Positions 27,814-63,770 of a stretch of 64,000 nt of DNA are shown here, piece after piece. The stretch comes from Verrucomicrobiota bacterium. GTDB taxonomy: Bacteria > Verrucomicrobiota > Verrucomicrobiia > Opitutales > JABDGR01. The notes below the pieces were generated by a model. That model was not told the origin of the DNA. It searched no databases and saw only the letters and a program-made list of their open reading frames with translations. The stretch is taken from NCBI GenBank assembly GCA_013285985.1, contig JABDGR010000001.1:67-64066 (forward strand), written 5' to 3'. The stretch's first letter is position 1; the number at the start of each line of letters is the position of its first letter. Both the position numbers and the translations under genes were made by a program.

Positions 27814-29172
<1,359 letters not shown>

Positions 29173-29192
29173 TCAATACTGAGAGAGGGAGC

Positions 29193-29214
29193 GAAAGCGG
29201 CGTCGAGCCGCCGC
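29193..29214 (-). terminator. Short intrinsic-terminator-like hairpin after stand-alone NGxWY gene A (part of a repeated cassette)
   Basis: Minus strand reads GCGGCG-GCTCGA-CGCCGC-TTTC. The same hairpin recurs at 32325-32346 and 33419-33440. Confidence 0.45.
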
Positions 29215-29276
29215 AGTCCAAAGTAGCTGGTCAGTTAGCGGTTTAATTGAATTACATAGATAACAAACCTGTTCGG

Positions 29277-29918
29277 TTAATTCCTGTCGCCCCCTTTCCA
29301 ATACCACTTGCCGTTGATTTTGACGAAAGTCATGGGAATTTGAGTGTCGCCGAGCACAACCTTCCCGTTGCTGACCTTCAGCCTTGTGAGCATATAAGTT
29401 GCTTCGTCGCCACTAGCGTTAAAGGTCGGAGTCTGGGTTTCGAGCGCTTCATAAGACTGAGCTGCTGTGTCTATGCCCGATTGCATCATTGGTAGCATAC
29501 GCGGATCCTGGGCAACCATGTCTCGTATTTGTTGCTGTTGCGCTTGCAATTGTTGAATCCTCTCTGGGTCTAGTTTGTCAGGTGGGGTATAGGTTTGCTC
29601 AAATGCTGCGTCATCACCCGCCCGGAACAAACGCACAATGTCCGGAATGGCGGTTTTCAAATCGGCTTGGGGGTCGGCTTCCGCAGGAGCAGCCACTGGA
29701 GGTGCGGAAGTGGTGGTTTGCGAATTAACCTTAACTGGCGAGGCGAGAGGTTTCGCAATTTGGGGTGGCGCGAGCGGCTTTGGGGCGGCGACATTACTCG
29801 ATGCATACGCAGCGGCGGTTTTTTCCTGGGTCTTCGGTGTGGGGCGCAGGAACCACCAGACGAGTATGCCAATGATGGCGGTGACCAGAACGCGCAGGAT
29901 GAAGTTTGGCGACTTCAT
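29277..29918 (-). CDS. Stand-alone membrane-anchored NGxWY-domain protein (paralog A): TM helix + Pro/Ala linker + ~120-aa extracytoplasmic domain
   Basis: MKSPNFILRVLVTAIIGILVWWFLRP (Lys-first, single TM), an AP-rich linker, then ADPQADLKTAIPDIVRL..YTPPDKL..QTPTFNASGDEATYML..FVKINGKWYWK. Homologous to 10 other ORFs in this window. Confidence 0.85.
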   Translation of the reverse strand: MKSPNFILRVLVTAIIGILVWWFLRPTPKTQEKTAAAYASSNVAAPKPLAPPQIAKPLASPVKVNSQTTTSAPPVAAPAEADPQADLKTAIPDIVRLFRAGDDAAFEQTYTPPDKLDPERIQQLQAQQQQIRDMVAQDPRMLPMMQSGIDTAAQSYEALETQTPTFNASGDEATYMLTRLKVSNGKVVLGDTQIPMTFVKINGKWYWKGGDRN

Positions 29919-29979
29919 GCGGGTGTTCTTCGCAATTTATAGCCGAATAGGCAATTACTTCCGCGCGGTATTGACGCAT

Positions 29980-30060
29980 TTTCGTAGCGCGGTGCTTTAG
30001 CCCGCGCTTCAGCCTACATCGATTGTTCCCACGCGCGGGCTAAAGCACCGCGCTACGAAA
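29980..30060. repeat. 28-bp perfect inverted repeat (TTTCGTAGCGCGGTGCTTTAGCCCGCGC ... GCGCGGGCTAAAGCACCGCGCTACGAAA) with 25-nt loop
   Basis: Arms at 29980-30007 and 30033-30060 are exact reverse complements. The element is intergenic, between the S46 peptidase stop and the paralog A start. Confidence 0.9.
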
Positions 30061-30070
30061 CGAGGCAGGC

Positions 30071-30097
30071 AAAAGCGGGCGCAGCAAGACTGCGCCC
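30071..30097 (-). terminator. Terminator-like GC hairpin downstream of the S46 peptidase gene (member of the GGGCGCAG..CTGCGCCC repeat family)
   Basis: Minus strand reads GGGCGCAG-TCTTG-CTGCGCCC-GC-TTTT. A near-identical hairpin without a T-tract sits at 27697-27716. Confidence 0.45.
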
Positions 30098-30187
30098 CTA
30101 CAAAGGCAATCGTGCGTTCTCGTAGGGGCGCAAACTTGTTGCGCCCGCGGGCGACACGGAGGTCGTCCCTCCGGAACGATACGCGGC

Positions 30188-32266
30188 TTACCGATGGCCG
30201 TTGAAGAGTTCGGCGGCTAATGCCGGGGCGTCGTAGATTTTGCGGAGGGCTTCGAGAATGCCGGCGCTGTGGACACTGACGGAGCGGGTCTGCACGTCGG
30301 AATAACCATAATCGCCGGAGAGGGACTGGATGTTGCCGTCGAAGATGATGCCGACGAATTCGCCCGCTTCGTTGACGACGGGACTGCCGGAGTTGCCGCC
30401 GATGATGTCGGCGGTGTTCACGAAATTGAGCGGAGTCGTCAAATCGACCGCGGATTTTTTCGCGAGCCAGCGCGCCGGCAGGCCGAAGGGTTCGCGGTTG
30501 TGGTGGGCGTCGTCGCGGGCGAAAAGGCCGGCAAAGGTCGTGAGCGCGGGGATGGTCTGGCCGTTTTCCTCATAACTTTTCACCGGACCGTAGGCGAGGC
30601 GCAGAGTGAAGGTGGCGTCGGGATAATTATTCGTGCCCTCGAGGGCGAAGCGGGCTTTCTCGATGACGGCGTGGGCCTCCTGGATGATTTCCTGCTGCGC
30701 CTCGACGGTCTTGCGCAGGGCGCGGGACTCGGGGTCGATGACGCGGGCGAGCTCAATCATCGGGTCGTGCGCGGCGGCCACGGCGTCCGCGCCGCCTTCG
30801 TAGAGTTTTTTGCGGAAGGCGAGGTCGCGCACCTGCGTGGTGTTAATCAATTCGGCGGCGCGGTCGCGCGGGGATTTACCGGCGAGAACGGATTGAACGA
30901 GGGGGTCGTCTGCGCCGAATTGCTCGACCAGATAGCCTAACGAGTCCGCGAGCTTGAGAATTTCGAAATCGGAATAAATCGGCGCGTTGGAAAAAAGGAG
31001 TTGCTCGAAGGACTCGCGCTTGGCGTCAGAAAATTCCGGCAGGCGCTCGCCGTTGGGCTTGGGGCGCTCGGCCCCGGCGCGGAGGAGGCGGCGAGCGAGC
31101 GAGAAGGACGCGGAGTTGAAGCCGGCACCATCCTCAAGCAGACGAAAGCGCGGCTCCAGGCCGGTGATAATTTTTTGCGCGGCGACGATGCGGTCAAAGG
31201 CGGCGAGGGCGTCCTTGCCATTGGGGGTGGCGGCGAGCTGCTGCTTGAAGGCCTGCTCGGCGGCGACTTTCGCGCCGAAGAACACGGGGTCCTGCAACGC
31301 GGCGAGCTGGCCGTCGCTGCGCTTGCGGTTGTTCTGCACGTTCAGCAGATCGCTATCCGCGCGACGGGCGTTTTCATCGGCGCGGCCGCTCCAGACGGAG
31401 TACAACACCTCGCGGCGTTTGATGACCTGCAGGTAATAAGGAAGCTGGCTGTCGCGCATGTATTCGATTTCGGGAATCGTCAGCAGGCGGCGCGTGGTGC
31501 CGGGGTGGCCGGAGACAAACGTCAGCTCACCGTCCTGCGCGCCGGTGGCGGACCATTTTAAAAAGTGCGCGGGGTGCACGGGCTGGCCGTTTTCGTAAAC
31601 GCGGAAGATGCAGATATCGAGGTCGAAGCGCGGGAACTCGAAGTTGTCGGGGTCGCCGCCGAAATCCGCCGCCTGCTCCTCGGGCGCGAAGACAATGCGG
31701 ATGTCGGTATAACGTTTGTAGCGGTAGAGGTGGTACACGCCGCCCTGGTAGAGCGTGACGACATCGCTGCGCAGGCCGGTCTGGTCGAGCGATTCTTTTT
31801 CGATGTCGGCGAAAATTTTGCGGCGGGCGAGCGCGGCGTCCGTGCCCGTGGCGTCGGCGGGGACGGCGGCGTTGACGCGCGCAGTGACATCCTCGATGGA
31901 CTGGAGCACGTTCAGCTCGAGGTCGAGGCACTTCATTTCCTCGGCGGGGGTTTTGGCGTAAAAGCCGTCGCGCACGTAATTGTGCTCGGCGTTGCTCATT
32001 TTCAGCAGGTCGCCGCGGCCGATGTGGAAGTTGGTGATGACGAGGCCGTCGCCACTGACGAACGAGCCGGAGCCACCGCTGATGAAGCGCACGCTGGACT
32101 TCATCAGGTTGTCGAGCCAGGCGTCGGTGAGGTCGAAGCCGTATTTCGCCTTAATCTGGGCGCGCGGCGGCGCGGTATAAAGCCACATGCCCTCGTCAGC
32201 GGATGCGGAAACCGCGAGCGCGAGGAGGAGGGCGAAGCCGAGGAAAGTGGAGCGAAGCCGAATCAT
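30188..32266 (-). CDS. Peptidase family S46 (DPP7/DPP11-like dipeptidyl-peptidase), secreted
   Basis: The ATG at 32266 gives MIRLRSTFLGFALLLALAVSASADEGMWLY: a signal peptide followed by the DEGMW box typical of mature S46 enzymes. IIGGNSGSPVVN serine motif near the C-terminus. The track start at 32353 lies in a repeat. Confidence 0.85.
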   Translation of the reverse strand: MIRLRSTFLGFALLLALAVSASADEGMWLYTAPPRAQIKAKYGFDLTDAWLDNLMKSSVRFISGGSGSFVSGDGLVITNFHIGRGDLLKMSNAEHNYVRDGFYAKTPAEEMKCLDLELNVLQSIEDVTARVNAAVPADATGTDAALARRKIFADIEKESLDQTGLRSDVVTLYQGGVYHLYRYKRYTDIRIVFAPEEQAADFGGDPDNFEFPRFDLDICIFRVYENGQPVHPAHFLKWSATGAQDGELTFVSGHPGTTRRLLTIPEIEYMRDSQLPYYLQVIKRREVLYSVWSGRADENARRADSDLLNVQNNRKRSDGQLAALQDPVFFGAKVAAEQAFKQQLAATPNGKDALAAFDRIVAAQKIITGLEPRFRLLEDGAGFNSASFSLARRLLRAGAERPKPNGERLPEFSDAKRESFEQLLFSNAPIYSDFEILKLADSLGYLVEQFGADDPLVQSVLAGKSPRDRAAELINTTQVRDLAFRKKLYEGGADAVAAAHDPMIELARVIDPESRALRKTVEAQQEIIQEAHAVIEKARFALEGTNNYPDATFTLRLAYGPVKSYEENGQTIPALTTFAGLFARDDAHHNREPFGLPARWLAKKSAVDLTTPLNFVNTADIIGGNSGSPVVNEAGEFVGIIFDGNIQSLSGDYGYSDVQTRSVSVHSAGILEALRKIYDAPALAAELFNGHR

Positions 32267-32324
32267 AGGAAAGCGGCTAGTTGAGCCATGCGTGAAGGCG
32301 GGAGTCAATACTGAGAGAGAAGGC

Positions 32325-32346
32325 AAAAGCGGCGTCAAGCCGCCGC
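32325..32346 (-). terminator. Short intrinsic-terminator-like hairpin after stand-alone NGxWY gene B
   Basis: Minus strand reads GCGGCG-GCTTGA-CGCCGC-TTTT, followed by CTCTCTCAGTATTGACTCC (a possible -35 for the peptidase gene). Confidence 0.5.
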
Positions 32347-32365
32347 AGGCCAAAAAATTGCTGGA

Positions 32366-33016
32366 CTAATTCCCTGCGTCATCCGGTTTCATATACCACT
32401 TGCCGTTGATTTTGACGAAGACCAAGGAGTTATGAATATCGGAAGTGGTGAACGCGCCGTTTTCCAAGTCGGACATTGATGGGGTAGTGTAAATATAAGT
32501 GGCTTCGTCACCAGCAGCGTTAAAAATAGGCGCCTGATTCAAGAGGGCTTCGAAAGCCTGCGCCCTCGCTTCATATCTATGCTGCGTGGCTTCTTTTCCT
32601 TGCCGGCCCATGGCATCCACGCGAGCTTGAATCTGATCCTGCTGCGCTTGCAGTGCTTGCACCCGGTCTTCATGGATTTTGTCGGGCGGGGTGTAGGCTC
32701 GCAATATCGCCACCAAGTTATTGGTCCGGTATAAATTCGCCATATCGGTGAGGGCGGCATTCAACTCAATTCTGGACCCGGCGTTGGGGTCTTTGGGCGG
32801 TGTGGCGGCGACAGGCGCAGCGGCTGAATTCGGCGCCGGCGGCGCAACTTGCTTGGGTGCTTCAATTTTACTCAGCGAAGGCACAGTAGTTTTGCTCGGC
32901 GCAGGCGCAGAGGCAGTTTTTTCCGGGACAGTTGCGGCGGGGCGCAGAAACCACCAAATGCCCATACCGGCGAGGACAACGATGAGAACAGCCAAGGTGA
33001 AGTTTTTAGGCCTCAT
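32366..33016 (-). CDS. Stand-alone membrane-anchored NGxWY-domain protein (paralog B)
   Basis: The ATG at 33016 gives MRPKNFTLAVLIVVLAGMGIWWFLRP, then an AP-rich linker, YTPPDKI, APIFNAAGDEATYIY and FVKINGKWYMK. The track start at 33052 adds 12 codons. Confidence 0.85.
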   Translation of the reverse strand: MRPKNFTLAVLIVVLAGMGIWWFLRPAATVPEKTASAPAPSKTTVPSLSKIEAPKQVAPPAPNSAAAPVAATPPKDPNAGSRIELNAALTDMANLYRTNNLVAILRAYTPPDKIHEDRVQALQAQQDQIQARVDAMGRQGKEATQHRYEARAQAFEALLNQAPIFNAAGDEATYIYTTPSMSDLENGAFTTSDIHNSLVFVKINGKWYMKPDDAGN

Positions 33017-33103
33017 GGCGTTTTTCTTCGCATTTTGTATCCAAGAAGGCAAACACTTCTGTTAGCCGGCAGCAAATCAGCTTGAATTTTGGCTTTGTTC
33101 TTT

Positions 33104-35921: not shown

Positions 35922-36359
35922 TTAAGGAAATTTGGGCGGGGTGCGGCCCTCGTCCACTTCGATAAAATCGAACATGGTGAGGATTTCGCCGATGCGGTGC
36001 TCGAGTTTGGCTTCTTTGAGGCGCATATGAAGGCGGGGCGTGGCGGTGTCGCGCCAGCCGCGCCGGAGGAGAAATTCGTTGAGTTCGGTGATTTCGTCAG
36101 TGGACGGCATACGACCATGCTCGAAGCACCACTGGAGGGCGGCTTCATCGGAGGCGCCGGCGAGGACCTGCTTTTTGAGGTCGTCGTATTTGACGCCGAG
36201 GAAACTGCAGCAACGGGCGTCAAAACCGCCGCCGAGGTTTTCGAGGTAATCCTTGCCGAGGGCGCTGGCGGCGTGCAGGCGGATTTTGTCCAGCATGCGG
36301 GGGAAATAGACGAGGCCGCCGGTCTTGTCATAACAACTGCGGGGGAACTTGGTGCTCAT
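35922..36359 (-). CDS. DUF5069-family protein
   Basis: The ATG at 36359 gives MSTKFPRSCYDKTGGLVYFPRMLDKIRLHA...FLGVKYDDLKKQV...ALQWC, the pattern I associate with DUF5069. Its stop abuts the rnr start codon. The track start at 36458 is over-extended. Confidence 0.7.
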   Translation of the reverse strand: MSTKFPRSCYDKTGGLVYFPRMLDKIRLHAASALGKDYLENLGGGFDARCCSFLGVKYDDLKKQVLAGASDEAALQWCFEHGRMPSTDEITELNEFLLRRGWRDTATPRLHMRLKEAKLEHRIGEILTMFDFIEVDEGRTPPKFP

Positions 36360-36523
36360 GGAAATAGGGAGATGGAGGAACCACGTTAACAGATTTCCGG
36401 CGCAGGGGAAGCACAACCGGCATGCCAATATTGACGCATTTTGAAATGACCTAAACAAGCGCCTAAAGAGCGGATTGGCCAGAGCCTAAAACTCTCCAGA
36501 AAACGACGAGCAGAGAATAAGAA

Positions 36524-37711
36524 CTAATTTGCCAAGAAACCTACCGTTTTTGCTTTTGGCATGGTTTTTATTTTAGCTGATAACTCTGTTTGGGTGAAGA
36601 GTGAAGGCCATTCGAGATTGATTGAAATTATATATGTCTCGCCGTCTTTTCGGTGTCGTATTGCCTGTAGATGTATGAGTTGATTCAAGTCCCTAATCAA
36701 AATCTTGTAAGGATTTTTTATTGTGTATGCCCATTTTGTTTTTTCGGTAATGGCCTCTAAGGTTAATTCTCCTTCCTGCAAGAGAAGTTTCAATACCTCA
36801 AATTGGCGCCCTGTTACTACACGTTTTCTGGGAGAGGTTAAGCGCCCAACTAACTCCGTCATGGTTTGCCTAAATAACGCCTTCGAAATATGCTCTTTTA
36901 TTTCTGAAAATAGGCGTTTGCATTGCTGTTCTATACCTTTTAGGCCAAGTAAAATGAATGGCGTCAAATCGTACTCTTGAGCACGTACGTCTGCCAACGC
37001 CTTTAGGTAAGCATTTTTTTCGTCATAATAATAATTGGACATTGCGATAAAGAGCGGTGTTTCGCGCAACCCAACTCTTTGAAGCATCAAGGCTTCTAAT
37101 GCTCGAGCTGTGCGACCATTGCCATCGAGAAAGGGATGCATGGCCGCAAAATGGTAATGTAACGCGAGTGCCTGTATAAGTGGGTCGTGGTCCTGGAACT
37201 CAGTCCGCACCGCCTCGCAAAGAGACTGGAAGGATTGGCAGACCATGTCGCCACCTGGTGCGCCACGATGCCTTGGATGTCCAAAAATGACATTGTCATC
37301 CGGGCCACGCAGTTTTCCGGGTGGGCAGTGATCATCATCTGCACCCGTGACGATGAGTCTGTGAATTTCGCAAATAAGCTCTTCATTGACTGGCCTATCG
37401 GCCGGCTGTTGGGCAATCCACCGATACGCATTTGCGGCAGCAGCGGCTTGTTTTTGAGAACGCGTTTCTAATTGTTCCACAGATTCGTGCATGGCTGCAT
37501 CTAACTCTTTGTCTGTAAATTCAGCTCCTTCAATTTTTGAAGTGCCAGCCACCTCGCGTTTAAGTTGAATACGCCGCATTTCATCAGCCCATTCACGCTG
37601 ATAGGGCATACTCGTCAGCGAAATAACCATTGCCTTTGCCGTGGACAATGGGCCTAGAACTTGGCCTTTATCGTATTTCAGCCAGCTTTGGGGGCGAGTG
37701 TAACGGATCAT
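36524..37711 (-). CDS. Fic family protein (class II, N-terminal inhibitory motif; C-terminal wHTH-like region)
   Basis: Fic active-site motif HPFLDGNGRTAR and an upstream TSKIEG that matches the (S/T)xxxE(G/N) auto-inhibition motif. The track start at 37723 is TTG; the first ATG is at 37711. Lies in the low-GC islet. Confidence 0.88.
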   Translation of the reverse strand: MIRYTRPQSWLKYDKGQVLGPLSTAKAMVISLTSMPYQREWADEMRRIQLKREVAGTSKIEGAEFTDKELDAAMHESVEQLETRSQKQAAAAANAYRWIAQQPADRPVNEELICEIHRLIVTGADDDHCPPGKLRGPDDNVIFGHPRHRGAPGGDMVCQSFQSLCEAVRTEFQDHDPLIQALALHYHFAAMHPFLDGNGRTARALEALMLQRVGLRETPLFIAMSNYYYDEKNAYLKALADVRAQEYDLTPFILLGLKGIEQQCKRLFSEIKEHISKALFRQTMTELVGRLTSPRKRVVTGRQFEVLKLLLQEGELTLEAITEKTKWAYTIKNPYKILIRDLNQLIHLQAIRHRKDGETYIISINLEWPSLFTQTELSAKIKTMPKAKTVGFLAN

Positions 37712-37761
37712 TACCAAATTCAATTCATTTCCAGAATTATAGCAAGCATTAAATTCATAAA

Positions 37762-38400
37762 ATGTTGGATGATAATGAAATAAAAGTTTTAAGTAAATTT
37801 TTACTCGACTTTAAAATCAATTTCGTTTCCAGTCCATTTCCTCGATTTATGAGCACTATTTATCTCAATTCGTTTTTCCCGATTAATCAGATTACGGCGA
37901 ACAAGTTGATGGCTGTTTGCGCCCAGCTTATCGCCAGCGAAAAGCCCGAACGACTTTATTTCCTCTTCGCTTCACCCGGCGGCGAAGTTCCTGCAGGCAT
38001 AGTAATTTATCATTATCTAAGGGCACTCCCCGTCAAGGTGACGATGCACAACATCGGCTCGATAGATTCAATCGCCAATGTAATTTTTCATGCCGCTGAT
38101 GAACGCAAGGCCGTACCGCAATCCACATTTTTATTTCACGGTGTCAGCTTGGGACTGGAAAAGGTAAGTTTAAACCGAAATCAACTTCAAGAGCTTAGCA
38201 GCCAATTAAGCGCCGATGAAATGAAAATCGCCACGATTCTAGCTGCCCGTTGCAACCTCACGCATGGGGATATCGAGTCCATGTTTGTCCAAGGCGTAAC
38301 CAAAGACGCCGTCTTTGCGAAGGACAAAGGCATCATTCAGGAGATTTCTCAGCCTGTCATCCCCCCAGACGCAAAGTTCATTAGCCTGAACTTTACCTAA
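37762..38400 (+). CDS. ClpP-like (clan SK, Clp/crotonase fold) serine protease family protein
   Basis: Aligns by eye to ClpP. LFASPGGEVPAGIVIY matches INSPGGxxTAGxxIY, NIGSIDSIANVIF matches GQAASMGAFLL (catalytic Ser position), and STFLFHGV matches SRVMIHQP (His position). An alternative start is M31 at 37852. Confidence 0.7.
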   Translation: MLDDNEIKVLSKFLLDFKINFVSSPFPRFMSTIYLNSFFPINQITANKLMAVCAQLIASEKPERLYFLFASPGGEVPAGIVIYHYLRALPVKVTMHNIGSIDSIANVIFHAADERKAVPQSTFLFHGVSLGLEKVSLNRNQLQELSSQLSADEMKIATILAARCNLTHGDIESMFVQGVTKDAVFAKDKGIIQEISQPVIPPDAKFISLNFT

Positions 38401-46139: not shown

Positions 46140-46766
46140 CTAGTCGCCGAAACGTTTCACATACCATTTGCCGTCGATTTTGATAAAAGTTAGAGGAATT
46201 TGCGTTTCACCGACAGCAATTCCCTCGTTGCTGAGTTTTGGCGCTGGGAGCATATAAGTCGCTTCATCGCCACTAGTGTTAAAAGTCGGGGTCTGGGTTT
46301 CGAGCCTCTCGTAAGCCTGCGCCCCAGTTTCTCGGGACTGAATGGACGGTGTGACAATTTTGTCGGCGGTACGGTTTTGAGAAGTTTGCAGTTCTTGCAA
46401 ATGCACTGGGTCAAATTGTGCCGGCTCTGTGTAAATTCGATATAATTCCGCCATATCGCCCGCCCGGTATAAACGCGCGATGTCTGGAATCACGGTTTTT
46501 AAATCGGTCTGGGGGTCGGCGGGATCGGGTGGAGTCTCCGTGGGTTTGGATGGTGCGTTGGCGATTTCAGACTTGGACTGAACGGACGGTGCCAAAAATT
46601 TAGCTATTTGAGGCGGCGCGATTGTTTTGGGCGCTTTGGCCTTGGCGGGGGCTGTCGCATCGGCCGTTTTTTCCGGGGTGGACGTGGTTTGCTGCATGAA
46701 CCACCAAACGCCGACAATCACGATGGCGATGAGGAAAACAATCCGGATGAAGTTTTTAGGCTTCAT
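46140..46766 (-). CDS. Stand-alone membrane-anchored NGxWY-domain protein (paralog C)
   Basis: The ATG at 46766 gives MKPKNFIRIVFLIAIVIVGVWWFMQQ, then a linker, ADPQTDLKTVIPDIARL, QTPTFNTSGDEATYML and FIKIDGKWYVK. The track start at 46952 translates the upstream repeat. Confidence 0.85.
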   Translation of the reverse strand: MKPKNFIRIVFLIAIVIVGVWWFMQQTTSTPEKTADATAPAKAKAPKTIAPPQIAKFLAPSVQSKSEIANAPSKPTETPPDPADPQTDLKTVIPDIARLYRAGDMAELYRIYTEPAQFDPVHLQELQTSQNRTADKIVTPSIQSRETGAQAYERLETQTPTFNTSGDEATYMLPAPKLSNEGIAVGETQIPLTFIKIDGKWYVKRFGD

Positions 46767-46850
46767 GCGAGTTTTATTCACATTTTTTATCCGATGACGC
46801 AAACCATTCTGCGTGGGGACGGTGATGCATTTGGAAGATGGGTTTATTGT

Positions 46851-53987: not shown

Positions 53988-54078
53988 GAAACAGGCAGCA
54001 GGGAAAGGCCAGGAAGGTAGAGGGAGAAACGGCCCGGTGAAAGCGGGAAAATGCCGAAGCGCCGATTTTCCGTAACTT

Positions 54079-54128
54079 TTGACGAGAAATGCCCAATTAA
54101 GGTATAATGGCATTCTTGCCGATCGGCA
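54079..54128 (+). promoter_or_regulatory. Sigma-70-like promoter plus palindromic operator candidate upstream of S1
   Basis: TTGACG (54079-54084), 18 nt, TATAAT (54103-54108), then the perfect 12-bp palindrome TGCCGATCGGCA (54117-54128), which ends 18 nt before the ATG. A degraded copy lies upstream of S2: TTGACG 54787-54792, TGTTGT instead of TATAAT, TGCCGATTGGCA 54825-54836. Confidence 0.55.
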
Positions 54129-54146
54129 CTCCTGAATAACCTCCAA

Positions 54147-54734
54147 ATGAAAACTCGCATTCTGGCCGTCACCCTCGTCTGCGCGGCCGCCGGGATACTG
54201 GCGTGGTTTTTTTATCCGGCATCGCCCGCGTCGGCGGCGAAGCCCGCCGAAGCCATAACCCTCGCGAAGATTGAAGCATCCAAGCCCGCCGCGCCCCTGT
54301 CCACACCGGTCGCGCCCAAGACCGCATCTGCACAACCGCAGACAGCACCGACAGCAACGGCGGTGGATAATCCAACGGGTGACCCGCGCGGTGATCCCAC
54401 CTCAGCCGTATCCGAGGCCGCGCGCCTTCTGCAAATACGAGATTATGCCGACTTTGTCAGAGAGTTTGTTCCACCCGACAGCTTGCAAAATGACTTGGAT
54501 CGGGGCATGACGGTCAATCAACTCGTGCAAGAGTTTGAAAAGGGTTTCAACGGAGACGGCAAAAATCCCAGTCAGGCCCATCTATTGGAGGTTTTGCAGA
54601 TACTGCAGGGGCGAACGCCTACTTTGGATGCCAAGGGTGAACAGGCGACTTTTACGCTTGATCCACCGGTGGCGGGCTGGGGCGGGGTTAATTTGGTCAA
54701 AATCAATGGACTTTGGTATTTTCCGTATGAATAA
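54147..54734 (+). CDS. Stand-alone membrane-anchored NGxWY-domain protein S1
   Basis: MKTRILAVTLVCAAAGILAWFFYP (TM), an AP-rich linker, FVPPDSL, RTPTLDAKGEQATFTL and LVKINGLWYFPYE. Confidence 0.85.
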   Translation: MKTRILAVTLVCAAAGILAWFFYPASPASAAKPAEAITLAKIEASKPAAPLSTPVAPKTASAQPQTAPTATAVDNPTGDPRGDPTSAVSEAARLLQIRDYADFVREFVPPDSLQNDLDRGMTVNQLVQEFEKGFNGDGKNPSQAHLLEVLQILQGRTPTLDAKGEQATFTLDPPVAGWGGVNLVKINGLWYFPYE

Positions 54735-54855
54735 GCGCTGATATTCAACCGCCCACCCACCCTCGAATCCCGATTTTTAGTAACTTTTGACGAGAAATGC
54801 CCAATTAATGTGTTGTGGCAATTCTGCCGATTGGCACTCTTGCATCACCCCCTAA

Positions 54856-55473
54856 ATGAAAACCCGCATCCTCGCCGTCGTCATTTTCTGCGCAGCCGCC
54901 GGCACCCTGGCCTGGCTGTTGTATCCGTCACCGCCCGCGCCGGCCGCGAAAACTGCTGATGCAAAAACCCCTGCGAAGATTGAAGCGCCGAAGCTCGCCG
55001 CGCCCCTGCCCGCGCCAACGCGTTCGGCCCAAGTGGCGCAGCCGGTGGTGGCCGCGGCGACGTCAAACCCGGCCGCCCCCACTCCACCGGCGGACGAAAC
55101 CTTTGTGGCCGAGCCGAAGACGGATTTGAAAGCGTGCGTCTCCACCATGATCCACTTTCTCCAAACGCAAGATATTGTCAGCCTGATCAAGACGGCCATG
55201 CCGCCGGATGCGATAAGCCAGATGATTGCCTCCGGCCAGGCCAGTTCGGTCGAAGATGTCGCCGCGCATTTCCAACAGATGCCCGACATCAGCAGCAAAA
55301 TCAGCCAACTGCTGCAAACCCTGCAAAGCGTCCAGGGCCAGGAGCCGGAAATAAGCGCGGACGGCAAGCACGCCACCTACAAGGTTGAGCCGGGCAACCT
55401 TCCGCCCGATGGGCCCGGCAACAACGGGGGCATCGAATTTGTCCAGGTTGACGGATTTTGGTATCTGCGCTAA
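54856..55473 (+). CDS. Stand-alone membrane-anchored NGxWY-domain protein S2
   Basis: MKTRILAVVIFCAAAGTLAWLLYP, a linker, KTDLKACVSTMIHFL, AMPPDAI, QEPEISADGKHATYKV and FVQVDGFWYLR. A tandem duplicate of S1, including its upstream region. Confidence 0.85.
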   Translation: MKTRILAVVIFCAAAGTLAWLLYPSPPAPAAKTADAKTPAKIEAPKLAAPLPAPTRSAQVAQPVVAAATSNPAAPTPPADETFVAEPKTDLKACVSTMIHFLQTQDIVSLIKTAMPPDAISQMIASGQASSVEDVAAHFQQMPDISSKISQLLQTLQSVQGQEPEISADGKHATYKVEPGNLPPDGPGNNGGIEFVQVDGFWYLR

Positions 55474-55481
55474 GATGCGGA

Positions 55482-56069
55482 ATGGCCTACGTCCGCCTCG
55501 GGTTTGTTTTGGTGCTGTTGCTGGCGCTGGTATACATGCTGGATAAGTTTGCCGACGCACCAGGTCTGGAGTCGCCGGACGCGACGCCGACGGCCGCATC
55601 ACCGGCCGCGAATACCGCAGGCGCACAAGCCACCGCGCCCGCCCTGTCTCCAGCGGACAAGTCGGCAACCCCAGGGACAGCCGCGGCCCCAACCGCCAGC
55701 GACCCGCAGGCGGAGTTGAGCACCGCGATTCCGGACATGGTGAACCTGATCCAATCGGGGCAACTGCTCACGGCGTTCAAGCGATACATACCGCCGTCCT
55801 ACCTCGCGCAAATGCCCCAGCCGGTGATCGACCAGCTGGAACAACAGGAGCAAAATTTGCTGGCGGACCCGAAGGCGCAGCAACGAAGGCTCCGGGTGGT
55901 GCAGGTTTTGCAGACCATGCAGGGCCAGGCGCCGGAATTGAACAGCGACCGGGACCGCGCGGTGTATCACGATGAGTCGGCCCCCGACCCCGACCTGCGG
56001 CAAATCGCCTTCATCAAAGTCGGCGGCAAATGGTATCTGGCGCCCGCGGCCAATGCGTTGTTTTTCTGA
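55482..56069 (+). CDS. Stand-alone membrane-anchored NGxWY-domain protein S3
   Basis: The ATG at 55482 lies 8 nt after the S2 stop and gives MAYVRLGFVLVLLLALVYML, then a linker, ELSTAIPDMVNLI, YIPPSYL and FIKVGGKWYLAP. The track start at 55458 is TTG and overlaps S2. Confidence 0.8.
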   Translation: MAYVRLGFVLVLLLALVYMLDKFADAPGLESPDATPTAASPAANTAGAQATAPALSPADKSATPGTAAAPTASDPQAELSTAIPDMVNLIQSGQLLTAFKRYIPPSYLAQMPQPVIDQLEQQEQNLLADPKAQQRRLRVVQVLQTMQGQAPELNSDRDRAVYHDESAPDPDLRQIAFIKVGGKWYLAPAANALFF

Positions 56070-56081
56070 TGGCGGCGTTTT

Positions 56082-56112
56082 TTGTCCGATTCTGCGTTGG
56101 GCGGTGTATATT
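56082..56112 (+). promoter_or_regulatory. Conserved upstream box of G1 (TTGTCC-N19-TATATT; alternatively TGTCCGA-N15-TGTA)
   Basis: One of five aligned boxes, each preceded by a T-run. Its end lies 18 nt from the ATG. Confidence 0.45.
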
Positions 56113-56130: not shown

Positions 56131-57420
56131 ATGACCTCCGATAGCGACTTGTTGCGCCAATACGCCGACCACGGCGACGAGGCCGCGTTTGCGGAGGTCG
56201 TGCGGCGGCAGGCCGACCTGGTCTATTCCGTCGCTCTGCGCGTGACGGCCAATTCCGCGCTGGCCGAGGAGGTGACGCAAACGGTCTTCACCCTGCTCGC
56301 GCGGCGGGCCAAAGCACTTTGCCATTACGACACGCTGGTGGGCTGGCTGCACACCACGGCGCGCAACACCGCCATCAATGCCGTACGGGGCGAGTCCCGC
56401 CGCCGCGCGCGCGAACAGGAGGCCGTCATCATGCAAGACTCACCCATCATGCCCGAAGCCAATTGGGCGGAAATCGGCCCGCTCCTCGACGAAGCCGTGG
56501 GCACGCTCTCCGAGCAGGACAGCAAAGCCGTCCTACTGCGTTTTTTTAAAAACCAGAGCCACCAGGAAGTCGGCGCGGCGCTGGGCCTGAGCGAAGACAC
56601 CGCGCGCAAACGCGTGGAACGGGCGTTGGAGAAACTGCGGAGCCATTTTGCCTCACGCGGCGTCACCGCATCATCTGCGCTGCTCGCCGCCAGCCTGACC
56701 GCGAACTCCGTGCAAGCTGCGCCGGTGGGATTGGCGGAAAAAATTGCCCCCATCTCGCTGGCCGGAATCGGCGGCGCGGGCGCGGGCAGCGCATTTTTAC
56801 TCGCACTAATCATGAGCACAAAAACCAAAACCATCCTCGCCATCGTTGTTGTCCTGGCCATCGCCGCCACTCTCGCCGTCAAATTGGGCGGTTCGGGCGC
56901 AGCACCCGCAACCGCCAGTTCAACGCCATCCACTCCCACTCCAGTCGCCGCCAGCCTGCCCAAGGCATCGACATCTGCGCCGCAGGTGGCCACGCCGACG
57001 ATGGCACCCCTGCCTGCGCATGGCGCAGTTTCCGCCGACACCGGACTCACGGCAACGGCAAGCACAGTCCCGGCGAACGCGGATTTGAAAACCGATGTGC
57101 CGACGCTTATCCACCTGCTGGAGATTGATGATTTTAATGACCTGATAGACTACATCATACCGCCGGAGGAATTGCAGCATGACCTGCAGGCGCAAACCCG
57201 GGAGGTTTTTGCGAATAAACTTCGTGAGGAATTGGGCGCCCATGGCGGTGCCGCGATGCTGCTTGATGCCCTGCACTCAATTGATGGCCAGGAGCCGGTG
57301 CTAAATGACACTGGAGATGTCGCCACATTCAGGCTGGGACCGGCCACCATTGCCACCGCGGCCGGCCACGATGAAATCAAGTTCAAGAAAATGAACGGGT
57401 TGTGGTACGGCCCACAATGA
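56131..57420 (+). CDS. ECF-type sigma-70 factor fused via TM helix to extracytoplasmic NGxWY domain (G1)
   Basis: Region 2 (DLVYSVALRV..GWLHTTARNTAINAVR) and region 4 (LSEQDSKAVLLRFF..EVGAALGLSEDTARKRVERALEKLR). Conserved segment RGVTASSALLAASLTANSVQAAPVGLAEKIAPISLAG, TM MSTKTKTILAIVVVLAIAATLAV, an AP/T linker, IIPPEEL, QEPVLNDTGDVATFRL and FKKMNGLWYGPQ. Confidence 0.85.
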   Translation: MTSDSDLLRQYADHGDEAAFAEVVRRQADLVYSVALRVTANSALAEEVTQTVFTLLARRAKALCHYDTLVGWLHTTARNTAINAVRGESRRRAREQEAVIMQDSPIMPEANWAEIGPLLDEAVGTLSEQDSKAVLLRFFKNQSHQEVGAALGLSEDTARKRVERALEKLRSHFASRGVTASSALLAASLTANSVQAAPVGLAEKIAPISLAGIGGAGAGSAFLLALIMSTKTKTILAIVVVLAIAATLAVKLGGSGAAPATASSTPSTPTPVAASLPKASTSAPQVATPTMAPLPAHGAVSADTGLTATASTVPANADLKTDVPTLIHLLEIDDFNDLIDYIIPPEELQHDLQAQTREVFANKLREELGAHGGAAMLLDALHSIDGQEPVLNDTGDVATFRLGPATIATAAGHDEIKFKKMNGLWYGPQ

Positions 57421-57439
57421 ACTGGGCGACGGCGCTTTT

Positions 57440-57472
57440 TTGTCAGACTTTCGGGCGGGCGGGTGCTATAAG
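57440..57472 (+). promoter_or_regulatory. Conserved upstream box of G2 (TTGTCA-N21-TATAAG)
   Basis: Aligned with the other four boxes; its end lies 13 nt from the ATG. Confidence 0.4.
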
Positions 57473-58838: not shown

Positions 58839-58872
58839 AGCACAGAATTACTGGACGGGTAACGTAAGATTT

Positions 58873-58904
58873 TTGTCAGGTTCTTTGGGTAGGCGGTGTA
58901 TAGT
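58873..58904 (+). promoter_or_regulatory. Conserved upstream box of G3 (TTGTCA-N20-TATAGT)
   Basis: Aligned with the other four boxes; its end lies 20 nt from the ATG. Confidence 0.4.
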
Positions 58905-58924: not shown

Positions 58925-60274
58925 ATGACCCCCGATTGCGAATTACTGCGCCAATACGCCGAACGTGGTGACCAAGCCGCGTTTGCGGATTTGGTGCGCC
59001 GGCATACGGATTTGGTTTACTCCATCGCGGTGCGGGTGGCGGGCGACCCGCAACTGGCCGAGGATGCGACCCAAGTTGTTTTTACCAAGCTGGCCCGGCA
59101 GGCGCGGGCGTTGCTGGGCTACCCCACCCTCGTCGGCTGGCTGCACACGACAACCCGCTATTCCGCCATCAACCTCATCCGCGGTGAAGAACGCCGCCGC
59201 ACCCGCGAACAGGAGGCCGCCGCCATGCACCATGATTCATCCCTGCCGGACACGAATTGGAAAGAAATCCGCCCGCTGCTCGACGAAGCCGTGGGCCGGC
59301 TTGGCGAACAGGACCGCCAGGCGGTGTTGCTGCGCTATTTCAACGGCCTGAGCCATCAGGAAGTCGGCGCGACATTGGGCTTGAGTGAAAACTCGGCGAA
59401 CAAGCGCGTGGAGCGGGCGCTGGAAAAGCTGCGCGGGTATTTTGCTTCGCGCGGGGTGAAAGCTTCCTCGGCTTTGCTCGCGGCGAGCATCACCGTGAAT
59501 TCCGTGCAGGCTGCTCCGGTGGGGCTGGCGGAGAAAGTTACTCCGGCTTCGCTGGCGGGGGTTGGCACTACGGGCGCCGCCAGCGCATTTTTACTCGCCT
59601 TAATTATGAACACCAAAACCAAAGCCACCCTAGCCATCGCCGTTGTCATTGTCTGTGTCGCCCTTTGGTGGTTCGGGCGACCAACAACAGATACTCTGAA
59701 AAAAGCCGCTCTAGAGACGACGTCAGTCAAAAAAATCACCGCGTCGTCAGTATCGCAGGTCGAAACGCCAAAACCATCTCCAGCGACATCCAAGTCCGAA
59801 ACAGCCACATCTCTGTCCGAGCCCGCCGATCCCCAAGCCGATTTGAAAACCGCCATCGCCGATATGGCGCGTTTACTCCGAACCGGTGACCAAGCGGCTC
59901 TTATGAAGGCCTACGACGAGCCGGACAAATTGAATTTGGAACAAGTAAGACAAATGCAGGATCTCCAGGATCAGGTGCAGCAAACAACCCCATGGCAAGT
60001 CGCCCCGCGCATGCAGTCCCTGCGCGAAACATCGGCGCAATCTTACGAGGAAATGGAAACGCAGACACCGACCTTCAACGCCACTGGCGACGAAGCCACT
60101 TACCAGTTGATTCTGCCGACATTGGTTAATGGAGAATACGTGCTAGGCGACAAACGAACCCCCTATACCTTTATCAAAATCAACGGCAAGTGGTATATGA
60201 AGTTAGAGTATTTCAACGGGCCACCGTCCCCACCACCGCCGTCTTTGTTGCCGACTAATCGAGGCGGGAATTAA
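58925..60274 (+). CDS. ECF-type sigma-70 factor fused via TM helix to extracytoplasmic NGxWY domain (G3; sensor half resembles the scattered stand-alone copies)
   Basis: Same sigma and linker, with TM MNTKTKATLAIAVVIVCVALWWFGRP. The domain reads ADPQADLKTAIADMARL..YDEPDKL..QTPTFNATGDEATYQL..FIKINGKWYMK, plus a Pro-rich tail. Confidence 0.85.
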   Translation: MTPDCELLRQYAERGDQAAFADLVRRHTDLVYSIAVRVAGDPQLAEDATQVVFTKLARQARALLGYPTLVGWLHTTTRYSAINLIRGEERRRTREQEAAAMHHDSSLPDTNWKEIRPLLDEAVGRLGEQDRQAVLLRYFNGLSHQEVGATLGLSENSANKRVERALEKLRGYFASRGVKASSALLAASITVNSVQAAPVGLAEKVTPASLAGVGTTGAASAFLLALIMNTKTKATLAIAVVIVCVALWWFGRPTTDTLKKAALETTSVKKITASSVSQVETPKPSPATSKSETATSLSEPADPQADLKTAIADMARLLRTGDQAALMKAYDEPDKLNLEQVRQMQDLQDQVQQTTPWQVAPRMQSLRETSAQSYEEMETQTPTFNATGDEATYQLILPTLVNGEYVLGDKRTPYTFIKINGKWYMKLEYFNGPPSPPPPSLLPTNRGGN

Positions 60275-60378: not shown

Positions 60379-61638
60379 ATGCCCTCCGACAGCGAACTCC
60401 TGCGCCAATTTGCGGACAGACGCGACGAAACTGCGTTTGCCGAAGTCGTGCGCCGCCACGCCGACCTGGTTTACTCCGTCGCCCTGCGGGTGGTGCGGAA
60501 TGACGCCATTGCGCAGGATGTCACGCAAACCGTCTTTACCAAACTCGCGGGACGGGCGGGAGTGCTTTACCGCTACGATACCATTATCGGCTGGCTGCAC
60601 ACGGCCGCGCGCCATGCGGCCATCGACACCATCCGCAGTGAAGAACGCCGCCGCGCACGCGAACAAGAGGCCGCCATCATGCAAAACATCCCAACCATGC
60701 CGGAAGCAAATTGGGCGGAAATCGGCCCACTGCTCGACGAAGCCGTGGGCACGCTCTCCGCGCAGGACAGCAAGGCCGTCCTGCTGCGTTTTTTCAAAAA
60801 CCAGAGCCACCAGGAAGTTGGCGCGGCACTGGGCCTGAGCGAAGACACCGCGCGCAAGCGTGTGGAACGGGCTCTGGAAAAGCTGCGCAGCCATTTCGCT
60901 TCACGAGGAGTAAGAACCTCTTCTGCGTTGCTCGCGGCTGCGATGAGCGCGAACTCTGTCCAGGCCGCGCCAGTGGGGCTGGCGGAGAAAGTCACCCCGG
61001 CGTCGCTGGCGGGAGCGGGCGGAACTGCGGGTGGTATTTTTCTGAAAATTCTCTTTATGAGCACCAAAGTCAAAATCCTCGCCGCCGCCGCGGTCATCGT
61101 GGCGATTGCGGTTACCCTCAGCATAAACTGGCCGCAAACGGCCCCGCAACCCGGCGCGAGCACACCGGGCGCGACTGTTGTCCAACCGACGGCCGGACCT
61201 GCGCCAATCAAGCCACCGAATCAATTGCCGGCGGCAAAGCCGGTTGCCGCGGCCGCAATTTCGCCAACGGCCAATAACACCCCGGCATTCATCGCCGGGC
61301 CGCAAGTGGATTTGAAAACGGCTATCGCGACAGGCATCCATTTTCTCGATGCCAACGACACCCTGAGTTTCTTTAAAACCCTGATGCCGCCGGAGGCGAT
61401 TGCCGGCGAAGGGAAAGGAAGCACGGTGGAAGAATTCGTCGCCCAAATTAGCCAGGACCCGCGCACCGAGAAGAAAATTTCCTCGATGCAGGACGCAATG
61501 AAGGCGATTGCAGACCAGACCCCCCAGTTAAATGGCGACGGCACCCGCGCGACTTACCCCCTCGACCCGCCCGTCGGCGGGCACAAGGCGGTGATATTTA
61601 ACAAAGTGGACGGTTTTTGGTATCTGGACGGAATGTAA
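60379..61638 (+). CDS. ECF-type sigma-70 factor fused via TM helix to extracytoplasmic NGxWY domain (G4)
   Basis: Same architecture; the region 4 text is almost identical to G1. TM MSTKVKILAAAAVIVAIAVTL, linker, DLKTAIATGIHFL, LMPPEAI, QTPQLNGDGTRATYPL and FNKVDGFWYLDGM. Confidence 0.85.
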   Translation: MPSDSELLRQFADRRDETAFAEVVRRHADLVYSVALRVVRNDAIAQDVTQTVFTKLAGRAGVLYRYDTIIGWLHTAARHAAIDTIRSEERRRAREQEAAIMQNIPTMPEANWAEIGPLLDEAVGTLSAQDSKAVLLRFFKNQSHQEVGAALGLSEDTARKRVERALEKLRSHFASRGVRTSSALLAAAMSANSVQAAPVGLAEKVTPASLAGAGGTAGGIFLKILFMSTKVKILAAAAVIVAIAVTLSINWPQTAPQPGASTPGATVVQPTAGPAPIKPPNQLPAAKPVAAAAISPTANNTPAFIAGPQVDLKTAIATGIHFLDANDTLSFFKTLMPPEAIAGEGKGSTVEEFVAQISQDPRTEKKISSMQDAMKAIADQTPQLNGDGTRATYPLDPPVGGHKAVIFNKVDGFWYLDGM

Positions 61639-63116: not shown

Positions 63117-63770
63117 GTGACCAAGAAACCCAAAATAAAAGGCACCAAGGCCGAAGTGCCGGGGAACCTGCACCCGCACTTCGACAAGATGCTGCCGCGT
63201 GCCGAGAAAGAGGCGCGGCTGGGGCAGCGCGGGGTGGTCTGTTGGTTGTTTGGCTTATCCGGTTCGGGCAAAAGCACACTGGCGTTGGGCTTGGAGCGCA
63301 AGTTGTTCGAAGAAGGCCGGATAGTACAGGTACTGGATGGCGACAACATCCGCACGGGGCTGAACCGCGACCTGGGGTTTGGCGAAGTGGCCCGGCGCGA
63401 GAACATCCGGCGCGTGGCGGAAACGGCGAAGCTCTTCGCACAGGCGGGGGTCATCGTGGTGGCGTCGTTCATCACGCCGCGGGAAGGCCTGCGGCAACTG
63501 GCGCGCGAAATCATCGGTGAGAAGGATTTTTACAATGTTTACGTGAAGGCCTCATTCACCACCTGCGCAGCGCGCGACCCGAAGGGGCTTTATAAAAAGG
63601 CCGCAACCGGGGAGGTCACGCAATTCACGGGCCACGACCAGGAATTTGAGGACCCGCTGGCGCTGCCGGCGAACCTGGTGATCGACACGGAGAAGCTGAA
63701 TTATGAGGCAAGCCTGGAAAAACTGCACGCGGCGCTGCGGTCCCACTACAAACTGAAAAACAAGCACTAG
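63117..63770 (+). CDS. cysC: Adenylyl-sulfate (APS) kinase
   Basis: [19 protein letters not shown]-loop, [16 protein letters not shown] and [11 protein letters not shown] start at 63117. Confidence 0.92.

Follow-up and report, generated by a model that had tools for sequence, protein, structure and literature searches.

The fused array and the layout of G3

The 64,000-nucleotide (nt) stretch of verrucomicrobial DNA analysed here, which we call the window, carries a tandem array of five genes, G1 to G5, each encoding an extracytoplasmic function (ECF) sigma factor fused to an outer domain, and the subject of this work is the third of them, G3, whose sigma half is of the array type and whose outer half groups with free-standing paralogs encoded elsewhere in the window. 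In a scan of all open frames of the window with hidden Markov models (HMMs), the C-terminal domain family has exactly 11 members, 5 of which carry an ECF sigma N-terminal half, and one HMM matches all 11 C-terminal parts (E-values of 7e-24 to 1e-46). The unit of helix, spacer and domain also constitutes a large family of free-standing proteins of ~200 amino acids (aa), six of which are encoded in the window; three of these, S1, S2 and S3, lie directly upstream of the fused array (54147-56069, plus strand). We refer to the subtype of the other three, A, B and C, as the ABC type. The family members are:

29277-29918, minus strand: A, free-standing ABC-type paralog of 213 aa, closest relative of the G3 domain, identical to P0001
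32366-33016, minus strand: B, free-standing ABC-type paralog, start set at MRPKNF
46140-46766, minus strand: C, free-standing ABC-type paralog, start set at MKPKNF
54147-54734, plus strand: S1, free-standing paralog of another subtype
54856-55473, plus strand: S2, free-standing paralog of another subtype
55458-56069, plus strand: S3, free-standing paralog of another subtype
56131-57420, plus strand: G1, fused array gene of another domain subtype; its ortholog in the related locus L001 is P0053
57486-58838, plus strand: G2, fused array gene of another domain subtype; its sigma half recurs in the chimeric gene P0048
58925-60274, plus strand: G3, a single open reading frame (ORF) of 449 aa in the ORF list, with ECF sigma factor, linker, membrane helix, spacer and outer domain
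60379-61638, plus strand: G4, fused array gene; its domain recurs in P0048
61694-62959, plus strand: G5, fused array gene; its ortholog is P0034

The product of G3 is identical to the database protein P0027, and its named database relatives are annotated as Opitutales, Verrucomicrobiota. The part under study, 59606-60274, runs in frame from Met228 to the stop codon and comprises the last 222 codons of the ORF. From the N-terminus onward G3 is built as follows, where pLDDT is the predicted local distance difference test of the AlphaFold2 model:

58991-59194, plus strand: sigma region 2, aa 23-90 (Pfam PF04542, E = 4.5e-11; pLDDT 94-97)
59279-59431, plus strand: sigma region 4, aa 119-169 (Pfam PF08281, E = 1.6e-13)
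59450-59605, plus strand: hydrophobic linker, aa 176-227 (SSALLAA..NSVQAAP.GLA...), with two weak hydrophobic segments
59606-59608, plus strand: junction Met228 (ATG), invariant in an alignment of 90 fused homologs
59618-59680, plus strand: main membrane helix, aa 232-252 (hydropathy 2.06; aa 230-250 helical in the model)
59681-59827, plus strand: low-complexity spacer, aa 253-301, rich in Thr, Ser, Pro, Lys and Ala (pLDDT 39-50)
59828-60205, plus strand: folded outer domain of the ABC subtype, aa 302-427, with four helices and a three-stranded sheet (pLDDT 94-98)
60206-60271, plus strand: Pro-rich C-terminal tail (KLEYFNGPPSPPPPSLLPTNRGGN), delimited by alignments (pLDDT <50)

G3 scores well above the cut-offs of PF04542 (Sigma70_r2; 42.8 bits, cut-off 24), PF08281 (Sigma70_r4_2; 50.5 bits, cut-off 25.7) and NCBIfam TIGR02937 (78.6 bits, cut-off 42.9), and the Pfam/NCBIfam scan did not match region 3. 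With regions 2 and 4 and without region 3 or region 1, it is an ECF (group 4) sigma-70 factor. Region 4 is followed by an extension of 274 aa in an architecture common to at least 90 homologs; G1-G5 adjoin other fused genes with no anti-sigma gene between them, and the solitary fused homologs in loci L003-L005 have unrelated neighbours. G3 is thus an ECF sigma factor with a C-terminal regulatory extension. In the linker, which has Kyte-Doolittle peaks of 1.38 and 1.80 and pLDDT values of 57-79, N192, S193, V194, A196 and A197 are conserved in at least 90% of the 90 homologs and P198 is invariant. The Pro-rich tail (GPPSPPPPSLLPTNRGGN) is not present in A, B, C or the other array genes, and P0036 has a similar short tail.

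The outer half of G3 groups with A, B and C

From the junction Met onward G3 is closer to A, B and C than to G1, G2, G4 and G5, as a first-pass annotation of this DNA had claimed. In BLASTP the C-terminal half of G3 scores 147 bits against A (46% identity, E = 5e-48), 142 bits against C (43% identity) and 116 bits against B (37% identity), compared with 50-60 bits against S1-S3 and 54, 49, 46 and 40 bits against its siblings G5, G1, G4 and G2, respectively. In a MAFFT alignment the identity of this half is 38-46% to A/B/C versus 22-29% to the array siblings. A neighbour-joining tree of the 11 C-terminal halves, the check that had been proposed, places the G3 sensor in a clade with A, B and C at 100% bootstrap support, so that the grouping with the array siblings that the same annotation had named as contrary evidence does not arise.

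Of 5.8 billion proteins, none is closer to the G3 domain than A, the free paralog encoded in the same genome, with 55% identity in the domain columns and 46% overall, and a search with the outer half of G3 returns mainly free-standing proteins of ~200 aa. The mean identity of the G3 domain is 43% to free ones and 40% to fused ones, and a sister group of G3 composed entirely of free-standing proteins was recovered in 76/100 bootstraps. Within the ABC clade, G3+A was found in 19/100 and G3+A+C in 30/100 bootstraps.

The sigma half of G3 is a mosaic

In protein sequence the sigma halves of G1, G2, G4 and G5 are 61-78% identical, compared with 22-31% for their C-terminal halves and 26-31% for their outer halves. 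The G3 sigma half is 75% identical to that of G5 and 65-70% identical to those of the other siblings, and sliding nt windows combined with a permutation test attribute the excess identity to G5 to the first of the two following tracts:

59303-59509, plus strand: G3-G5 gene-conversion tract of 207 nt, 90% nt identity versus 71% outside (permutation p = 0.0005)
59581-59598, plus strand: 18-nt run identical to G1, just before the junction, with 16 consecutive concordant polymorphic sites (permutation p = 0.0005 to 0.006)

Within the 207-nt tract, which covers region 4 and linker, the G3 protein is closest to G5 and the G5 orthologs P0034, P0038 and P0040, and the tract suggests conversion in the direction from G5 to G3. 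The closest relative of region 2 of G3 (aa 1-105) is P0039 and not G5, and the sigma half also holds a 44-nt G2-like tract. G1 and G4 in turn share a tract of 153 nt (equivalent to 59249-59401 in G3; 94% identity versus 71% outside, p = 0.0005). These pair-specific tracts beyond permutation expectation identify the G1-G5 array as a case of concerted evolution or gene conversion, and the sigma half of G3 is a mosaic of G5-, G1- and G2-like tracts. The first-pass description of this half as G5 type holds for region 4 and the adjoining linker; it does not extend to region 2 or to the other tracts.

The switch between the two halves lies inside the membrane helix

The junction Met, which an independent scan found in 78/80 homologs, lies in the consensus F[LYF]-M-[SNT]-T-K-x-K of fused homologs and corresponds to positions 56812 in G1, 58167 in G2, 61057 in G4 and 62384 in G5. 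Over aa 228-243 of G3 (MNTKTKATLAIAVVIV), G1 and G5 agree with G3 at 10-11 of the 16 positions and A/B/C at 2-4; over aa 244-257 (CVALWWFGRPTTDT), the siblings agree at 0-2 of the 14 positions and A/B/C at 5-7. The G3 helix is therefore array-type up to aa 243 (nt 59653) and ABC-type (WWF.RP) from aa 244 (nt 59654), and the switch occurs within the membrane helix near nt 59654, 16 codons downstream of the Met at which it had previously been placed. Similarity drops shortly past the junction in all pairs of array genes, with or without G3. Every fused ABC-type gene shows this hybrid pattern, with MSTKxK at the junction and WWF where the helix ends, and the apparent breakpoint in G3 may therefore reflect a constraint of the fused state.

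The junction ATG lies in an AT-rich pocket (GC 0.22-0.46 from -24 to +20, versus 0.6-0.8 around it), as do true starts in this organism, and the GC content at third codon positions around it is 0.56 versus 0.65-0.67 in the rest of the genes, a codon test being marginal. Support for selection of AT-richness at this site is therefore marginal, and the pocket mostly follows from Phe, Leu, Ile, Lys and Asn codons. A Shine-Dalgarno sequence was not found before the junction ATG, and true starts in the window also lack one. The junction Met may be an internal translation start or the relic of a two-gene ancestor, with marginal support from codon bias.

The ABC type and other subtypes in other genomes

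A search with full-length G3 returns hundreds of fused homologs. When each half was typed against the window genes, at least 14 fused ABC-type proteins were identified in other Opitutales (P0018, P0028-33, P0036, P0037, P0041, P0045, P0049, P0052 and P0113), carrying at least 5 different linker types; the ABC type is therefore not, as had been assumed, a purely stand-alone type. Similarly, the S3 type, free in the window, is fused to a sigma factor in P0046, P0056 and P0059 (53-55% identity), and the S2/G4 type likewise exists both free and fused.

A profile search of 1.84 billion cluster representatives yielded 891 family clusters at E-values up to 0.001; among the best 150 family cluster representatives, in which the top matches are ABC-biased, ~17 are of fused length and ~130 are free. 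In a genome scan with alignment A2, which did not return the window's own genome, one nearly complete Verrucomicrobiae metagenome-assembled genome contains at least 9 ABC-type loci, mostly free-standing. In genomes other than that of the window, both free and fused ABC-type genes lie scattered instead of forming arrays. The G1, G4 and G5 domain types each form a separate clade that is kept across many genomes.

Sigma halves and outer domains are re-paired between loci

The clearest case of re-pairing is provided by a contig (L001) that is syntenic with the window at ~87% nt identity and in which the array ends at the same APS kinase gene. Its array consists of a G1 ortholog, one chimeric gene (P0048) and a G5 ortholog; the chimera is G2-type (84-98% nt identity) up to approximately nt 470 of the gene and G4-type from approximately nt 600 onward, comprising linker, helix and domain, and this locus lacks the G2 domain, G3 and the sigma half of G4. 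An independent contig (L002) carries the same chimeric gene together with the G1 and G5 orthologs and the same APS kinase gene. A single unequal crossover between G2 and G4 in conserved region 4 or the linker would explain this arrangement. By parsimony, G3 would have been present in the common ancestor of the window and L001 and subsequently lost in L001.

The pairing of sigma and domain types also differs between genomes, with G2-type sigma factors joined to G5-type domains in P0051, P0081 and P0108. Divergence along the gene is uneven: in the clade of P0028-33 and P0037 the identities are 82-93% in sigma factor and linker, 56-84% in the helices and 35-55% in the domains, and between G5 and P0034 the sigma half is 92% and the domain 69% identical. 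Two orthologous loci (L004 and L005) share 79-92% identity in the flanking genes; identity in their fused gene is 72-88% as far as the WWF motif of the helix and falls to 8-50% beyond it. Conversely, the fused protein P0028 and the free protein P0004, from other metagenomes, have domains that are 72% identical and helices that are 22% identical and are paired in 100/100 bootstraps; their third-codon identity climbs from ~30% to 50-60% at the start of the folded domain, and the unit exchanged in this pair is the folded domain rather than helix plus domain. Moreover, fused ABC-type genes are monophyletic in 0/100 bootstraps. The L001 chimera, the P0028/P0004 pair and this lack of monophyly bear out the more general part of the first-pass annotation, namely that the sensor halves are exchangeable.

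A separate observation concerns the L004 (5274-6617) and L005 (1767-3131) genes, in which four-fold site identity is 81% in sigma region 2 and 51% in the flanking genes (p = 1e-6), so that the sigma part looks more recently shared than its surroundings.

Age of the joining

Identity at four-fold sites is 53-75% between the sigma halves of G1-G5; between G3 and the free paralogs it is 43% (A), 47% (C) and 48% (B), where ~36% is expected at random, and the synonymous sites of G3 versus A/B/C are thus nearly saturated. These differences in four-fold and protein identity indicate far more recent shared ancestry or homogenization of the sigma halves and a great age of the outer domains. A search for recent gene conversion linking G3 to A, B or C brought up no tract. 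Because of this result and the near-saturation, any capture of a free domain would have to be ancient, with a donor that can no longer be named. The joining event in G3 probably predates the split from the L001 lineage, and the direction of joining, fusion versus fission, is not readable from the sequences.

Predicted structure and function of G3

In AlphaFold2 models of G3 both sigma domains and the outer domain are predicted with confidence, the linker with lower confidence and the spacer as disordered. The C-terminal half has no sequence match in Pfam, NCBIfam or the PDB, including a profile search of PDB sequences. Foldseek against the PDB returned only weak matches to the outer domain, all of them NTF2-like (best E = 0.035, TM-scores ≤0.28). 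In common with the NTF2-like fold, as found in the NTF2 domain of the anti-sigma factor RsgI9, the N-terminal domain of PBP2a, YchJ and the SnoaL-like extensions of ECF41/56, the domain has helices followed by an antiparallel sheet; unlike that fold, it is modelled with three strands only. SnoaL-like extensions of ECF factors reside in the cytoplasm; the G3 domain, in contrast, is predicted to lie outside the cytoplasmic membrane on the basis of a Lys-rich N-terminal flank like that of the free-standing signal-anchor proteins. The linker, hydrophobic and ~50 aa long, matches no anti-sigma family in Pfam/NCBIfam, and G3 lacks a recognizable ZAS- or FecR-like anti-sigma domain of the kind that defines IutY and the ECF48/52/53 hybrids.

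By analogy with the systems compared below, we suggest that G3 is most likely a membrane-tethered ECF sigma factor that is freed by proteolysis: (i) the sigma factor would be held at the membrane, (ii) perception of a signal by the outer domain would lead to its release or activation, most likely by regulated proteolysis, and (iii) the released sigma factor would drive a family-specific promoter, including its own.

How the halves of G3 may have come together

Combining the trees, the tracts and the comparison between loci, we consider it likely that G3 unites an array-type sigma factor, linker and first half-helix with an outer part of the ABC subtype, that the two halves have separate histories, and that outer domains have been re-paired by recombination. 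In this model the sigma-linker halves would be kept alike by homologous recombination among the fused paralogs, through both gene conversion and unequal crossing-over, and the outer domains would be old, strongly diverged subtypes that become re-paired with sigma halves. From the earlier proposal, in which recombination at the junction placed a stand-alone-type cassette behind a resident sigma factor, we retain the re-pairing by recombination and abandon the breakpoint at the Met and the single resident sigma factor; the sequences show neither a donor nor a direction.

Several points weigh against these interpretations. At L004/L005 the identity at four-fold sites is 12/31 (39%) in the domain versus 480/948 (51%) in the flanks (p = 0.21), and the domain at this locus may simply have diverged very fast. 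Resolution within the ABC clade is poor (G3+A+C in 30/100 bootstraps; the ABC clade versus outgroups in 65/100), neighbour-joining over ~137 columns is a weak method, and G3 has been seen on one metagenome contig only. As for function, the topology is ambiguous, with one or three membrane spans placing the domain outside and two placing it inside, and the role proposed for G3 is drawn solely from analogy.

Among the ways in which G3 could have acquired its present form, it is quite possible, though short of probable, that G3 is an ancient fused ABC-type gene that came to lie in the array and whose sigma factor, linker and helix start were then overwritten piecemeal by conversion from G5, G1 and G2, in which case no free cassette was ever captured. 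The conversion tracts are directly visible, the region 2 and region 4 parts are closest to different relatives, and array-type similarity stops in the middle of the helix, where a conversion tract must stop because homology between the subtypes ends there. Fused ABC-type genes are, moreover, widespread, and by parsimony G3 would be older than the split between the window and L001. On the other hand, G3 is not particularly close to any of the known lineages of fused ABC-type genes (62-66% in the sigma half, 20-36% in the helix and 41-47% in the domain), and its domain is, as described, slightly closer on average to free than to fused ones. As a reading of the sequences, an old fused gene with an overwritten sigma half seems equally good as the capture of a free cassette.

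Such a capture, in which a free A/B/C-type helix and domain were joined behind a resident array sigma factor by one recombination at or near the junction, thereby creating G3 in this lineage, strikes us as rather unlikely. The position of the free paralog A as the closest domain relative among 5.8 billion proteins (46% overall, 55% in the domain) argues for it, as do the free-only sister group (76/100 bootstraps), the sharp switch from array type to ABC type in the helix at approximately nt 59654 and the scattered rather than arrayed occurrence of ABC-type genes in other genomes. However, the MSTKxK-then-WWF hybrid pattern recurs in the fused ABC-type genes of many genomes and may be a constraint rather than a scar, the synonymous sites of G3 versus A/B/C are nearly saturated without a tract, G3+A is supported by only 19/100 bootstraps, the sigma half is a mosaic rather than one resident copy, and free and fused helices offer no homology to guide a crossover.

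The reverse process, in which fused ancestors gave rise to A, B and C (and S1-S3) by losing their sigma halves and beginning translation at the junction Met, appears improbable. In its favour, that Met is invariant across the 90 fused homologs, the Lys-rich stretch and helix that come after it resemble the N-terminus of a free-standing protein, the S3 and S2/G4 types occur in both states, and S1-S3 lie directly upstream of the array. Against it, the N-terminal motif MKPKNF of free ABC-type proteins and, in the window, their own upstream region differ from the fused junction MSTKxK, and free forms account for ~130 of the best 150 ABC-biased cluster representatives. We regard as similarly doubtful the broader notion that the fused genes are two-in-one genes, in which Met228 would serve as a second start yielding both a tethered sigma factor and a free outer module, free and fused forms would constitute one interacting network, and the outer domains would be cassettes made to be exchanged, whose reshuffling by recombination widens the range of signal inputs.

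Divergence by duplication without recombination, with the outer domains of G1, G2, G4 and G5 evolving faster than that of G3, is very hard to maintain: outer domains do outpace sigma halves between orthologs (69% versus 92% identity for G5/P0034), but the domain types of G1, G4 and G5 each persist as a clade of their own in many genomes, sigma factors and domains are combined differently from one genome to the next (for instance G2-type sigma factors with G4- or G5-type domains), and the L001 chimera and the P0028/P0004 pair contradict it. Equally remote is an assembly mis-join inside the repeated array, for which the single contig carrying G3 and its absence from the sister contig could be adduced: two mis-joins would be required because G2 and G4 flank G3 with normal intergenic regions carrying the family upstream motif, the longest identical run between paralogs in the sigma half is 33 nt in a concordant-site scan (59434-59467, G3-G5), below the longer assembler k-mers, and a template for a chimera is lacking because no other gene of the contig is more than 46% identical to the ABC-type part.

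Comparison with known systems and implications

The hybrid of sigma and anti-sigma factor IutY of Pseudomonas putida (ECF243), which is activated by regulated intramembrane proteolysis, resembles G3 in joining an ECF sigma core, a membrane span and a C-terminal part outside the cytoplasm (in G3 by prediction) in one polypeptide, and serves as the model for the release of a tethered sigma factor; as reviewed in PMC8999054, it differs from G3 in its FecR-like anti-sigma part and its role in iron cell-surface signalling. G3 for its part differs from IutY in its 50-aa hydrophobic linker and its uncharacterized outer domain. The actinobacterial ECF52/ECF53 proteins (e.g. SCO4117), for which activation by proteolysis has been proposed, share with G3 the order of sigma core, one or two helices, proline-rich spacer and extracytoplasmic domain (in G3 by prediction), and are distinguished from it by a zinc-finger (ZAS-like) segment, a carbohydrate-binding domain and a different phylum; free-standing paralogs or tandem arrays are not mentioned in the passages that describe these groups (PMC8999054, PMC5826349).

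Among the modes of ECF regulation, C-terminal extensions rank second in frequency and occur in 19 groups (PMC7826278), and multiple gene-fusion origins have been proposed for them. The closest parallel is found in Planctomycetes, where recently duplicated ECF genes have highly conserved regions 2 and 4 and discordant C-terminal extensions, and the extensions found in a single sigma cluster go back to several origins (Pinto and da Fonseca 2020, PMC7671368). Both cases belong to the PVC superphylum and combine extensions of low identity with disagreement between sigma and extension trees (PMC7671368). In Planctomycetes the extensions are mutually unrelated, and their proposed origin is the insertion of a duplicated sigma core into other genes (PMC7671368); here, in contrast, a single domain family supplies every extension and is also represented by intact free-standing genes that have starts of their own, and in the tandem array homologous recombination is directly visible in the form of conversion tracts and an unequal-crossover chimera. 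Given that the discordant pattern of sigma factor and extension has already been described for Planctomycetes (PMC7671368), G3 itself is a modest addition.

How extended ECF sigma factors gain new inputs is an open evolutionary question. Those that carry fused extensions count as the one-component systems among sigma factors. The family described here is a natural case for this question, with one sigma scaffold and many homologous outer domains that are also free-standing. Its conversion tracts, the chimera left by unequal crossover and the pair of fused and free domains make individual recombination events readable in the sequences. Should the domains be sensors, this family would provide a template for the modular rewiring of sigma-factor inputs and a handle on an uncharacterized periplasmic domain family of ~900 sequence clusters.

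Upstream motifs and neighbouring genes

The fused genes are preceded by the motif TTTTGTC(A/C)G-N15-18-GTGTATA(A/T)T, which ends ~20 nt before the ATG and occurs before G1-G5 as well as before fused homologs in L001, L003, L004, L005 and L024. In the window it occurs at 56078-56112, at 57436-57472, upstream of 60379 and 61694, and before G3 as follows:

58870-58904, plus strand: TTTTTGTCAG-N16-GTGTATAGT (TTTTGTCAG-N16-GTGTATA), candidate family-specific promoter of G3

The motif falls outside the criteria of a sigma-70 scan, and we propose it as a candidate promoter that is specific to the family and may be autoregulated. The TATA box of G1-G5 lies between the covarying arms of an inverted repeat (GGCGGT..ACCGCC, GGGTGTC..GACACCC, GGGTGC..GCACCC); this potential stem-loop is not kept in all homologs.

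Although scattered over 17 kb, A, B and C are preceded by a common conserved sequence of ~45 nt (29919-29965, 33017-33065 and 46767-46815, all on the minus strand) with the pattern (G/A)GAA(G/T)(T/G)-N15-TA(T/C/A)AAA..G(C/T)GAA(G/T)AA..ATG, which may be a common promoter. The ~75 nt upstream of S1 and S2 are nearly identical (54070-54146 and 54780-54855; TTTT..GTAACTTTTGACGAGAAATGCCCAATTAA..), and S1 has a near-consensus sigma-70-type promoter, TTGACG-18-TATAAT, at 54079-54108. A sigma-54-like reading of the S1/S2 upstream region was discarded because its spacing is wrong.

The APS kinase gene lies directly downstream of the fused array in three genomes (window 63117-63770, L001 4421-7321, L024 6153-9661), and in L001 and L024 it is followed by genes of the PAPS-reductase family and of an EF-Tu-family GTPase, an arrangement resembling sulfate activation. 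The array before this gene comprises 5 genes in the window, 3 in L001 and 3 in L024, and the gene types also differ.

Rfam and tRNA scans of the window gave no matches. Around A and B (27814-33052, minus strand) the gene order is B, a large gene read from its sequence as a putative S46-type peptidase (30188-32353), A and enolase (27814-29157). Finally, the stretch 36000-38400 has a GC content of 0.475 versus ~0.60 elsewhere and may be a small foreign island; it contains a gene with the Fic-type motif HPFLDGNGR (36524-37723, minus strand) and an unassigned ORF of 212 aa (37762-38400, plus strand).

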